Assembly (NCBI GenBank): GCA_964444955.1
Contig: CAYUJB010000003.1
Coordinates: 1-57,723 of the forward strand
DNA length: 57,723 bases
Origin: an uncultured Candidatus Saccharibacteria bacterium
GTDB taxonomy: Bacteria; Patescibacteriota; Minisyncoccia; 2-02-FULL-40-12; GWA2-44-9
Direction: 5' to 3'
The translations under genes were made by a program, and so were the position numbers. The notes under the pieces were generated by a model. It saw only the letters and a list, made by a program, of their open reading frames with translations, was not told the DNA's origin and made no database searches. The first letter of the stretch is position 1, and each line of letters starts with the position of its first letter. This document shows positions 56,267 to 57,723 of this stretch, in pieces.

Positions 56267-57723
56267 AAAGGAGGTGATCCAAGACCAGCTTCCGCTAGCC
56301 TTGCCTTGTTACGACTTACTCCCTGTTACCGATCCTACCGTGTCCCCCCAGGAATGTAGGGGTCTTCAGGTATTACCGGCTCCCTTGAGTTGACGGGCAA
56401 TTGTGCTCTGTGATTTCAGAGTTGACGTTCCCATCGTACCTGCGGATGTCCCGCATACGACGAGCTCTAGTGCATCTTTGCTTTTATCTTGCAAAGACTT
56501 TGTTCAATAGAGTGAATCCTTCTTCTCGTTTTATCGACGAGACTTACTACGATTCAGCTGACTTCTGACGCAGCGTCAAATCATTGATCTGCGTCAGATC
56601 TCCCTGGGTCAGATATACTTCTCTTCCTGACATCTCTTCGCGTTATCTGATATCACATTCCCCATGCTCACTGCCAATCATAGGTCTGTGAAACGCTGTT
56701 GAGTGAAGAGCTGCCATTTGCCTCGGGCTCCTTCGCTCAGATCCTCACGGGTCTGAACTAGCCTCCGACTACTCCTCCGACGGTTGTGGAGGGGGTGGAC
56801 TTGAACCACCTAGAATCATATCCTGCCAGGCGCTTTCATTGTGAGTGCAAACTTCGAGAACGTATTCACCGCGGCATGCTGATCCGCGATTACTAGCAAT
56901 TCCAGCTTCAAGGAGGCAAGTTGCAGCCTCCTATCCGAACTGAGGACGCGTTTGATGGGATTAGCTCCACCTCGCGGTTTGGCGACCCGTTGTCGCGTCC
57001 ATTGTATCATGTGTGTAGCCCAGGGCATCAGAGGGCCACGCTGACTTGACGTCATCCCCACCTTCCTCTGCGTTACCGCAGCAGTCTCGTGTGACACATA
57101 TAACACACGATAGGGGTTGCGCTCGTTGATCCACTTAAGGAGACCTCTCACGAGACGAGCTGACGACAGCCGTGCAGCACCTGTCCAACGGCCTTTCGGG
57201 GTCCCACGTTTCTGCGGGATTTCCTTTGGATTTCAAGCCCTGGTGAGGTTTCTCGGTTAGAGTCGAATTGAACCACATGATCCACTGCTTGTGCGAAGTC
57301 CCGCCTATTTCTTTGAGTTTTAACCTTGCGATCGTACTTCCCAGGCGACACACTTAACGCGTTAGCTTCGCCACTGGAAGGGTCGATGCTCCCAATAGCT
57401 AGTGTGCATAGTTTAGGGCGTGGACTACAAGGGTATCTAATCCTTTTTGATCCCCACGCTTTCGTAATAGACCGTCAGCAGAACGCTAGAGAGCTGCCTT
57501 CGCTTTTGGTGTTCCGTATGATATCAGTGGATTTCACCCCTACACCATACGTTCCGCTCTCCTCTCATTCGCTCAAGTCGTGCCGTTTCCGATGCGGACA
57601 TGAAGTTGGGCCCCATGATTTAACATCAGACTAACGCGACCGGTGACTTTCGCTTTACGCCCAGTAATTCCGGATAATGCTCGGGGTCTCTGTATTACCG
57701 CTGCTGCTGGCACAGAGTTAGCA
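56267..57723 (-). rRNA. rrs: 16S rRNA (partial: from about E. coli position 500 to the 3' end, intron-containing)
   Basis: 530 loop, 806, 926, 1100 and 1492 conserved blocks; 3' GGAUCACCUCCUUU. Confidence 0.98.
56400..56840 (-). mobile_element. ORF-less group II intron (441 nt) in 16S after position 1399 (E. coli numbering)
   Basis: 5' GCGCCUGGCA...GGUG..AGUCC, ACCCAGGGAGAUCUG, CAGAAGUCAGCUGAAUCGUAGUA (DII/DIII), DV CGUCGUAUGCGG..CCGCAGGUACGAUG, 3' terminal AU. EBS loop GGCAGUGAG is complementary to the spliced junction CUCAC/UGCC. Confidence 0.88.

Follow-up and report, generated by a model that had tools for sequence, protein, structure and literature searches.

What interrupts the decoding region of the 16S rRNA gene at this locus, and how would a functional rRNA be recovered from it? 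The window, i.e. the whole stretch of 57,723 nt that was analysed, derives from a CPR (Patescibacteria) genome of ~0.7 Mb; the named 16S sequences nearest to its own belong to Patescibacteria and Yanofskybacteria MAGs. An initial annotation, made from the letters alone, had proposed an ORF-less group II intron with atypical ends. All of its sequence statements were found as described, and the comparative data presented below strengthen the identity that it assigned. The best overall explanation, to which we give a probability of about 0.8, is an ORF-deleted member of a 16S intron family that would splice by the mechanism set out below.

The insertion site and its boundaries

The 16S rRNA gene lies on the minus strand (Rfam SSU_rRNA_bacteria match, 823 bits) and ends with GGAUCACCUCCUUUC at approximately window position 56270. 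It is split between E. coli 16S positions 1399 and 1400 by an insert of exactly 441 nt, reading AAUGAAAGCG...CACAAU from 56840 to 56400. Three genomes of the same genus (G001, G004 and G007) carry the uninterrupted site, GCACTCAC/TGCCCGTC (in short form GCACUCAC/UGCCCGUC), and in their alignments query positions 1-120 are directly joined to 562-691. These empty sites match the insertion length and the CUCAC/UGCC junction that had been read from the sequence, and the flanking bases permit no shift, so that the boundaries are unambiguous. Moving the splice sites to recover a GUGYG start was ruled out because the empty sites fix both ends to the nucleotide. A whole-genome search found no further intron copies. 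The assembly contains one 16S gene only; the intron must therefore be tolerated or removed. The insert and the exon segments next to it are as follows:

56400..56840, minus strand: intron, 441 nt; inserted precisely by comparison with intronless 16S genes of the genus, and found once in the genome
56841..56845, minus strand: IBS1, CUCAC, the last 5 nt of the 5' exon (16S 1395-1399); from empty-site relatives and covariation of the EBS loop
56396..56399, minus strand: start of the 3' exon, UGCC (4 nt, 16S 1400-1403), which pairs with GGCA in the EBS loop

Fold, conservation and descent of the intron

All six domains of a group II intron were located in the insert, which folded alone at -154.5 kcal/mol (z = -5.1):

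56836..56840, minus strand: 5'-terminal linker AAUGA (intron 1-5), extra nucleotides before the core, a family-wide feature
56831..56835, minus strand: degenerate core motif AAGCG where GUGYG would be canonical (intron 6-10); GCG near-invariant in the family
56603..56830, minus strand: Domain I (intron 11-238), with basal stem CCUGG/CCAGG and 10 more helices with compensatory changes
56661..56684, minus strand: exon-binding hairpin CCUAUG/CAUGGG; its loop GGCAGUGAG at 56667-56675 consists of EBS1 GUGAG and the adjoining GGCA
56560..56602, minus strand: Domain II (intron 239-281); the 9-bp stem CUGACGCAG/CUGCGUCAG covaries and lies within the RF01998 match
56557..56559, minus strand: J2/3, AGC, invariant
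56513..56556, minus strand: Domain III (intron 285-328), with a UGAAUC/GAUUCA stem, a GUAGUA/GAAGG internal loop and a distal hairpin; RF01998 match and helix covariation
56465..56512, minus strand: Domain IV (intron 329-376), a CUCUA/UAGAG stem around the remnant of an endonuclease ORF, where relatives have a LAGLIDADG_1 ORF
56467..56490, minus strand: what is left of the LAGLIDADG ORF, K I K A K M H stop; every codon has its counterpart at the end of the ORFs of three relatives, L004, L006 and L008 (...IKAKMH*)
56430..56464, minus strand: Domain V (intron 377-411), with a 10-bp lower helix, AG bulge, 4-bp upper helix and loop GACAU; supported by covariation
56403..56426, minus strand: Domain VI (intron 415-438), with a GUC/CAC base, an AA bulge on the 5' strand and a covarying CUCUG/CAGAG stem
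56400..56402, minus strand: 3' tail AAU; the terminal U is invariant and is the last intron nucleotide in all members

We found ~60 homologues at the same 16S site in other CPR genomes, and their alignment substantiated the recognisable Domains I to VI of the initial annotation. Across 56 homologues, 91.1% of cells in the 84 pairs of DI-DIII were paired, compared with 65.4% in shuffles. The covariation score of these domains was 0.712 versus 0.231 in shuffled alignments (reached by 0 of 500 shuffles; slid controls gave 0.10-0.16), and 72 of the 84 pairs showed changes on both sides, including four and five pairs of Domain III helices 15 and 16 respectively. Compensatory changes also occurred in the helices of DIV (e.g. 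CUCC/GGAG in homologue L003), DV and DVI. The window copy keeps ~96% of the consensus pairs and differs from the family at three positions that are conserved elsewhere, one of them in the Domain V loop. J2/3 is embedded in AAGUCAGC, which was unchanged in 56 sequences; by analogy with IIC introns, its A is likely to be the gamma partner of the invariant 3'-terminal U.

Domain V reads CUCGUCGUAU-GCGG-GACAU-CCGC-AG-GUACGAUGGG; 99.9% of its cells were paired, with compensatory changes at five pairs. The CGU triad noted at the outset is real (C-G-U at 56462-56460) and is compensated: the third pair is C-G in 33 sequences, giving CGC, and U-A in 15 including the window copy, giving CGU with a compensating A. 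Thus CGC is the triad of most family members and CGU that of the window's sub-lineage. The central G.U was invariant (48/48), and the geometry fits that of a group II Domain V, a hairpin of ~34 nt with a 2-nt bulge, an upper helix of 4-5 bp and an AGC or CGC triad, the last being CGU in the window copy. The loop C at 56448 is A in 50/50 other members, most of which were retrieved by a pattern requiring GAAA. Since the pattern scan of genome contigs demanded GGGAAAUCCGC, the loop invariance in that set is partly built in; the unbiased sample comprises 10 loci only, with GAAA in all 10. The change from GAAA to GACA could weaken a tertiary contact. Domain VI is short, as had been remarked. Its base contains one C.C mismatch in the window copy, and its stem occurs elsewhere as CUCUA/UAGAG or UUCUG/CAGAA. 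The bulge, AA or AG, lies on the 5' strand and is AA in nearly all type A members; in no member did the 3' strand show a bulged A at the usual distance of 7-8 nt to the 3' splice site.

General models recognized little of this. At the Rfam gathering thresholds only SSU rRNA was reported, with the 3' end of the SSU model mis-threaded into the intron. Of the curated group II models (RF00029, RF01998-RF02012), an E-value scan gave a single match, and this lay below threshold: RF01998 (group-II-D1D4-1) reached 31.5 bits (E = 9e-4) where its gathering score is 35, spanning Domains II-III. RF00029 (Domains V-VI) had no match at E <= 10 across the genome, for which the unusual Domain VI and loop are probably responsible. 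A group I intron was ruled out by the group II-type Domain V/VI architecture, J2/3 and the EBS-IBS pairing. We regard it as practically certain that the insert is a real group II intron of the LAGLIDADG-associated family at the 16S-1400 site. In sequence terms its core is class-C-like, a group II ribozyme with a 5'-terminal insert and a junction-spanning exon-binding loop.

Members at this site measure 830-890 nt when they contain an ORF, 576 nt when partly deleted, and 441 and 453 nt when ORF-less. Some of the MAGs that contributed type B members bear the label Gammaproteobacteria, which we mention as a lead only. The closest relatives encode a LAGLIDADG_1 protein of 152-166 aa (E = 7e-15) in Domain IV. 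No ORF of more than 55 aa was found on either strand of the insert, in line with the ORF-less Domain IV of the initial annotation, which had overlooked that the last ~10 codons of the relatives' ORF are still present. To judge from this remnant, the ORF-less state is secondary and the window copy a deletion derivative, the endonuclease gene of Domain IV having lost about 390 nt. With the endonuclease lost, homing would no longer be possible and the intron would be passed on vertically. The copy would represent the end state of the homing-endonuclease intron cycle, in which the nuclease gene is deleted and the ribozyme is kept; because the host has only one 16S gene, selection would hold the ribozyme intact.

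Exon recognition and the proposed route of splicing

The intron starts AAUGA-AAGCG at the splice site, where a canonical group II intron has GUGYG. The approximately five extra nucleotides that had been noticed here are a property of the whole family: all ~60 members carry 5-9 nt ahead of the conserved GCG, with the consensus AAUNAAA, and the two bases preceding GCG vary (AA, AU, AC, CC or CU). Ahead of the degenerate NNGCG, the linker measures 5-7 nt. The exon-binding hairpin was likewise confirmed. Its loop GGCAGUGAG is complementary to CUCAC/UGCC across the ligated junction, EBS1 GUGAG pairing with IBS1 CUCAC over 5 bp, and the loop follows the exons of its hosts. Specifically, all eight hosts with ACACAC instead of ACUCAC have the loop GUGUG instead of GUGAG (8/8), and loop position 169 is A in 12/12 hosts with U1400 and G in 43/44 hosts with C1400. 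Bar one alignment artefact, loop bases track host exon changes in the 56 aligned sequences. The correlation with nucleotide 1400 (U with A, C with G) is present in both insertion registers, the EBS register being moved by 1 nt in 16 type B members. Covariation supports the predicted pairing of the loop with both exons. Apart from position 169, no column of DI-DIII covaried with host nucleotide 1400 as a separate EBS3 would; an invariant G that pairs with both U and C may act as one.

We propose that the pre-rRNA folds into the ribozyme, whose Domain I loop would bind CUCAC of the 5' exon through EBS1-IBS1, while the four adjoining loop bases would bind UGCC of the 3' exon, so that both exons are lined up on one guide. 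The first step would most likely be an attack by water that releases a linear intron, because a 5-nt linker precedes AAGCG and a bulged A is missing from the 3' strand of Domain VI. Ligation of the exons would then restore the decoding-region sequence CUCACUGCC. Group IIC introns with normal branch points also hydrolyse in vitro, and the anatomy is therefore an imperfect guide in both directions. On balance, and by analogy with other introns, we consider hydrolysis rather than branching the probable first step.

Branching with lariat release could in principle employ an unconventional branch point, such as either of the two A's left unpaired in the 5' strand of Domain VI or one in the 3' tail. 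In favour of this, Domain VI shows both conservation and covariation, nearly all type A members have the AA bulge on the 5' side, and lariats are known from certain LAGLIDADG-encoding group II introns (rns-952, cited in PMC13190283). However, the position where an unpaired 3'-strand A would be expected is empty in every member, the linker shifts the 5' splice site off the core motif, and mitochondrial introns with such linkers give exclusively linear products (Li et al., 2011, as summarized in PMC4748821). Branching is therefore improbable in our view, and much more so still is removal of the insert as an intervening sequence that leaves the mature 16S rRNA in two pieces, broken at 1399/1400. 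Fragmented rRNAs and RNase III-processed intervening sequences do exist in bacteria, many CPR rRNA insertions fit no intron model (PMC11270868), and the Rfam group II models stayed below threshold on the insert. Against this, compensatory changes maintain a full ribozyme core, a guide loop that follows both exons would be purposeless for endonucleolytic excision, and the rRNA would be broken within the single-stranded decoding centre. Fragmentation is accordingly the most remote of the readings considered here, whereas removal of the intron with exon ligation in vivo is, from the sequence comparisons, very probable.

Does the RNA splice by its own activity? The initial annotation had suggested looking for a maturase that acts in trans, and among the RT genes of the genome no group II maturase was found. 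The sole RT is a protein of 338 aa in which RVT_1 was the only domain matched; as it sits beside a VR/TR-type repeat, it is a DGR enzyme. Since no maturase was found in the intron or the genome, the RNA would be expected to splice unaided or with general host RNA chaperones. A decaying ribozyme that needs a specific helper in trans would be the alternative. LAGLIDADG maturases are known for group I introns, and the sole LAGLIDADG gene of this genome (LAGLIDADG_1), situated inside a 23S insertion, could supply such a maturase, as could another host protein; the intron's own ORF is gone, and the three deviations from conserved positions, including that in the Domain V loop, would fit decay. Yet nearly all consensus pairs are intact in the window copy, the 23S-insertion protein belongs to a different LAGLIDADG_1 lineage from the ORFs of the 16S-intron relatives (YIAGFLDGDGSIY versus YIVGLVDGEGSFT), and the fungal LAGLIDADG group II intron that has been tested self-splices without its protein (Mullineux et al., 2010, cited in PMC11270868). 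We consider dependence on such a helper unlikely, and lean slightly towards splicing without any specific protein cofactor.

Relation to described introns

Although the initial annotation implied novelty, the intron family at this CPR rRNA site has already been described, and the window copy is a further member. According to Tsurumaki et al. (2024, J Bacteriol, PMC11270868), the CPR '16IS9' class comprises group II-like insertions at 16S position 1400; 53 members were catalogued, 14 of them ORF-less, with LAGLIDADG_1 ORFs in most and RT in none. The window copy shares the CPR host, the 16S site at ~1400, the absence of an RT and an ORF-less state with a LAGLIDADG tail. That study classified insertions by Rfam models; in the text consulted, splice-site registers are not treated, nor are the 5' linker, Domain VI, the triad and the exon-binding loop. 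An Rfam-based screen might miss the window copy because it scores below the Rfam thresholds.

The anatomy has precedents as well. In the rns-1396 group IIC-LHE family of Thiomargarita and other Thiotrichaceae (Salman et al., 2012; Liu et al., 2026, PMC13190283), every member has a 5'-terminal linker, EBS2 is missing, and Domain IV contains a LAGLIDADG ORF with a single motif (PMC13190283). Like the window intron, these introns sit in the 16S decoding region and have a small, class-C-like core with a CGC-type triad and AGC at J2/3. Of the family's features, the linker, a CGC/CGU triad, J2/3 AGC and the ORF in DIV were seen in the CPR family, the search for EBS2 being non-exhaustive. The rns-1396 introns, which we compared by description, are reported from Thiotrichaceae only and carry the number 1396, and CPR members go unmentioned in PMC13190283; the CPR sites as counted here are 1399/1400 and 1398/1399. 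Loss of the branch point is known from mitochondrial IIB1 rRNA introns with 5' inserts and no branch-point motif (Li, Costa, Bassi, Lai and Michel, 2011). As portrayed in PMC4748821 and PMC13190283, these share with the window intron the extra 5' nucleotides, a Domain VI without a bulged A, the lack of EBS2, an association with LAGLIDADG rather than RT, and location in rRNA; PMC4748821 adds that branchpoint-less introns are excised in linear form, that their hydrolytic splicing was shown and that they never encode an RT. They differ from the window intron in backbone (IIB1 versus class-C-like), host (fungal mitochondria) and sites, and the resemblance is convergent, not membership.

IIC introns of the Oceanobacillus iheyensis type offer a similar core, a ribozyme of ~400 nt with a CGC-type triad with central G.U, J2/3 AGC, a short EBS1 and no EBS2, which splices hydrolytically in vitro (PMC4748821). 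The window intron lies in the single-stranded decoding region and lacks an RT, unlike the IIC subclass with its terminator or attC hairpin and its RT. Typical IIC introns encode an RT, follow terminator hairpins, start with GUGYG, have a bulged A and keep EBS3 in a separate loop. The base that covaries with the first 3'-exon nucleotide adjoins EBS1 here, like delta in IIA introns and unlike the EBS3 of IIC introns.

More tentatively, and with less confidence than in any of the preferred readings above, the CPR introns at 1399/1400 and 1398/1399 might form a large lineage that is unlisted in the 2026 catalogue of LAGLIDADG group II introns. Such a lineage would combine a class-C-like core with a single IIA-like guide, continuous over 4-5 nt of the 5' exon and 3-5 nt of the 3' exon, a fixed 5-bp EBS1 serving as the ruler; sliding EBS1 by 1 nt along the same 9-nt target would move the splice site by 1 nt. 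If this were true, the 441-nt, maturase-free copy in an essential single-copy gene would be among the smallest natural group II ribozymes obliged to work in vivo, and a CGU catalytic triad would be tolerated.

The window intron leaves current concepts unchanged. It could serve as a minimal model for hydrolytic splicing and for the tolerance of triad variation (CGU versus CGC), being a group II ribozyme of 441 nt whose exon guide is in one piece and which would have no protein partner. For annotation, the intron hides the true length of the 16S gene and its primer sites; because it splits the 1392R/1400-region primer site, amplicon surveys would miss or mis-size such organisms.

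The 16S gene and the limits of the insert

In the final 1.45 kb of the window, on the minus strand, lie the 3′ two-thirds of a bacterial 16S rRNA gene, which Rfam SSU_rRNA_bacteria matches with 823 bits over model positions 495–1533, up to the window end. The order on the minus strand is:

Upstream exon: conserved GAAUACGUUCUCGAAGUUUGCACUCAC
Insert: 441 nt of non-16S sequence
Downstream exon: UGCCCGUCAACUCAAGGGAG
3′ end of the gene: GGAUCACCUCCUUUC

To fix the boundaries, a 691-nt query comprising both exon ends and the insert was searched against 60 relatives. Query positions 1–120 directly abut 562–691 in three congeneric genomes (G001, G004 and G007), giving GCACTCAC/TGCCCGTC. 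Because the flanking bases differ, the boundaries cannot move either way; together with the empty sites, this places the insert at 56840–56400, between C1399 and position 1400 in E. coli numbering (1400 is U in the window's lineage). The initial annotation had given these limits, as well as those of the exon-binding loop (56667–56675), exactly.

The assembly (696 kb, 22 contigs, 96% complete) holds a single copy each of the partial 16S gene and of the insert, and among named sequences the nearest to its 16S gene and to the intron are from Patescibacteria and Yanofskybacteria MAGs. The contig end at 57723 truncates the 16S gene at model position 495, and its 5′ third was not found anywhere in the assembly; a further insertion in the 5′ part, or an assembly break there, could be the reason.

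Fold of the intron and its ends

Folded alone, the intron reached −154.5 kcal/mol (z = −5.1 versus dinucleotide shuffles). When the RNAalifold consensus was projected onto the alignment of 56 homologues, domains I–III comprised 84 pairs in 16 helices, 91.1% paired compared with 65.4% in shuffles, and in 72 of the 84 pairs both partners had changed. The covariation score was 0.712 against 0.231 in shuffles, a value reached by 0/500 shuffles, and partner-slid controls scored 0.10–0.16. The RNA structure of the insert is real. The covarying helices include:

Domain I: basal stem CCUGG/CCAGG, plus internal arms
Domain II: stem CUGACGCAG/CUGCGUCAG
Domain III: stem UGAAUC/GAUUCA, with internal loop GUAGUA/GAAGG

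The invariant AAGUCAGC terminates in J2/3 (AGC). The sole Rfam group II signal, RF01998, covers domains II–III with 31.5 bits (gathering score 35).

Domain V has the classic geometry of a 10-bp lower helix, 2-nt bulge, 4-bp upper helix and 5-nt loop. Among 48 sequences it is 99.9% paired, with compensatory changes at five pairs and an invariant central G·U in the triad. Counted from the bulge, the triad reads 5′-CGC in 33 sequences and 5′-CGU in the other 15, including the window, where the opposite G is always A; the CGU triad that had been noted from the sequence is accordingly a compensated variant of the class-C-type CGC triad. Nine loci (L008, L012, L019, L023, L048, L055, L079, L091 and L094) carry an insertion of 45–55 nt within the domain V 3′ strand, separating the bases that pair with triad nucleotides 2 and 3. 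An interruption here, in the most conserved helix of group II introns, is odd, and the inserted sequence looks hairpin-forming.

In members inserted at 1399/1400, domain VI has a base of 3 bp, a 5′ strand from which two A's bulge, and a covarying stem of 5–7 bp (CUCUG/CAGAG, CUCUA/UAGAG, UUCUG/CAGAA), followed by a 3-nt tail closing with an invariant U. An unpaired A on the domain VI 3′ strand is absent from all family members. Canonical group II introns begin with GUGYG at the very start; here, extra nucleotides precede the conserved GCG at the 5′ splice site in every member, the window intron beginning AAUGA, then AAGCG. The window intron also deviates at three family-conserved positions (intron nucleotides 41 and 76, and the domain V loop, where GACA replaces GAAA) and has a C·C mismatch at the domain VI base, possibly signs of weakening; its remaining helices are intact.

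Exon recognition in two registers

The hairpin CCUAUG/CAUGGG displays the loop GGCAGUGAG. Hosts with ACUCAC have GUGAG in this loop, and hosts with ACACAC have GUGUG (8/8). The next loop position is A in 12/12 U1400 hosts and G in 43/44 C1400 hosts, the single exception being an alignment artefact with a shortened loop. No column of the domain I–III alignment other than this one (intron position 169) tracks host nucleotide 1400, and the switch occurs independently in both insertion registers; other loop bases pair with G1401–C1403 by G-C or G·U. Since the loop tracks both exons, one continuous guide spans the ligated junction, which bears out the junction-spanning loop proposed from the sequence.

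Insertion registers of the family (EBS1, intron guide bases; IBS1, last 5 nt of the 5′ exon)
1399/1400 (type A): n = 41; EBS1 GUGAG, IBS1 CUCAC
1398/1399 (type B): n = 16; EBS1 UGAGU, IBS1 ACUCA

Four members were not assignable. The 5′-exon helix is 5 bp in either register, shifted by one nucleotide along the same target. Both registers share one 9-nt rRNA target (e.g. type B loci L012, L050 and L061 versus type A L003 and the window), with type B members having a 5′ linker 2 nt longer than that of type A.

Loss of the reading frame, relation to known introns and splicing

With the 691-nt query, homologues of the insert turned up at this site elsewhere in the genus, in the family and in the order. 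Scanning one genome per species with a domain V sequence pattern added ∼70 members; Paceibacterota and other CPR MAGs contributed most of them, and a few belong to MAGs with the label Gammaproteobacteria or another name. A typical member is 830–890 nt long and holds a single-motif LAGLIDADG_1 ORF of 152–166 aa (E = 7e-15), enclosed by a conserved stem, domain IV, whose 3′ strand includes the ORF stop codon. In L007 (576 nt) the ORF is reduced to its C-terminal third, and almost nothing of it is left in L005 (453 nt) and the window intron (441 nt), which has no ORF > 55 aa on either strand. The window remnant, AAG AUA AAA GCA AAG AUG CAC UAG (KIKAKMH-stop), matches, codon for codon, the end of the ORF in L004, L006 and L008. 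Given the ORF-bearing relatives, the shortened members and this aligned tail, the ORF-less state is derived, via a ∼390-nt deletion. The nearest ORF-bearing relative, in the same-genus genome G011, is 80% identical over the 5′ part and 94% over the 3′ part.

On a contig of one Paceibacterota MAG (L042:3103–3353), domain V, domain VI and the 3′-exon start occur twice, identical and 227 nt apart; the region has either been duplicated locally or been misassembled. Some MAGs with family members bear the label 'uncultured Candidatus Saccharibacteria' (L047, L057, L064, L080, L091–L093, L099 and L106). In a 2024 CPR survey, by contrast, the 16S genes of Saccharibacteria are reported to have no insertions (PMC11270868); the labels stem from automated binning and may be wrong.

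That survey found 53 insertions resembling group II introns, every one at 16S position 1400 ('16IS9'), with LAGLIDADG ORFs in 39, no ORF in 14 and RT in none (Tsurumaki et al., 2024; PMC11270868). The window intron agrees with this description on every point tested. It likewise shares what is listed for rns-1396, a bacterial family discovered in Thiomargarita (Salman et al., 2012): the backbone is IIC, domain IV holds a single-motif LHE, all members have a 5′-terminal linker, and EBS2 is absent (PMC13190283). This likeness is one of features and may or may not reflect common descent; Liu et al. (2026) list rns-1396 from Thiotrichaceae only and do not mention CPR (PMC13190283). The window intron lacks two textbook features, GUGYG at the splice site and the bulged A, and their absence is itself the known hallmark of endonuclease-associated lineages. 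The initial observation was thus confirmed in full (boundaries, loop, triad and ends), and its reading as a group II intron was right, as seen from fold and covariation in homologues. The intron is a further member of an already described kind. Registers resolved to the nucleotide, one continuous guide that includes a delta-like position, the sub-lineage with a compensated CGU triad and the clear ORF-deletion series go somewhat beyond the papers compared here, refining the known picture rather than changing it.

The insert has a conserved group II ribozyme fold, with an exon guide matching both host exons. We infer that the pre-16S rRNA would fold, that EBS1 and neighbouring loop bases would align the exons, and that the intron would be removed with ligation, restoring the decoding-centre sequence CUCACUGCC. 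The first step would most probably be hydrolysis, releasing a linear intron, because the linker parts the 5′ splice site from the core motif and domain VI lacks a branch-point A. Mitochondrial rRNA introns with a linker and no branch-point A are reported to give linear products only and never to encode reverse transcriptase (Li et al., 2011, cited in PMC4748821).

The genome has a single RT, of 338 aa and with RVT_1 only, beside a pair of variable and template repeats such as diversity-generating retroelements typically have. Its sole LAGLIDADG gene lies within a 23S rRNA insertion, and this gene is of a different sequence type. The genome thus offers no maturase for the intron, the only RT and the only LAGLIDADG gene being of other kinds, so that protein-independent splicing appears plausible but unproven. 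On contig C14 of the source genome (L033:1–1565), the 23S rRNA gene is broken after Rfam LSU model position 2632; the insert encodes the 148-aa LAGLIDADG_1 protein (468–914) and has no Rfam intron family over threshold, and 5S rRNA follows at 1455–1565. On contig C8 (L032:57–2301), a diversity-generating-retroelement-like cassette has a target ORF ending in ...RGGAWDWNYYWLGYVFHGYNPAALRAS, with an Asn-rich template-like copy, ...NDGAWNWNYNWLDNDFNGNNPAALRAT, ∼250 nt downstream of that end, and then the 338-aa RT.
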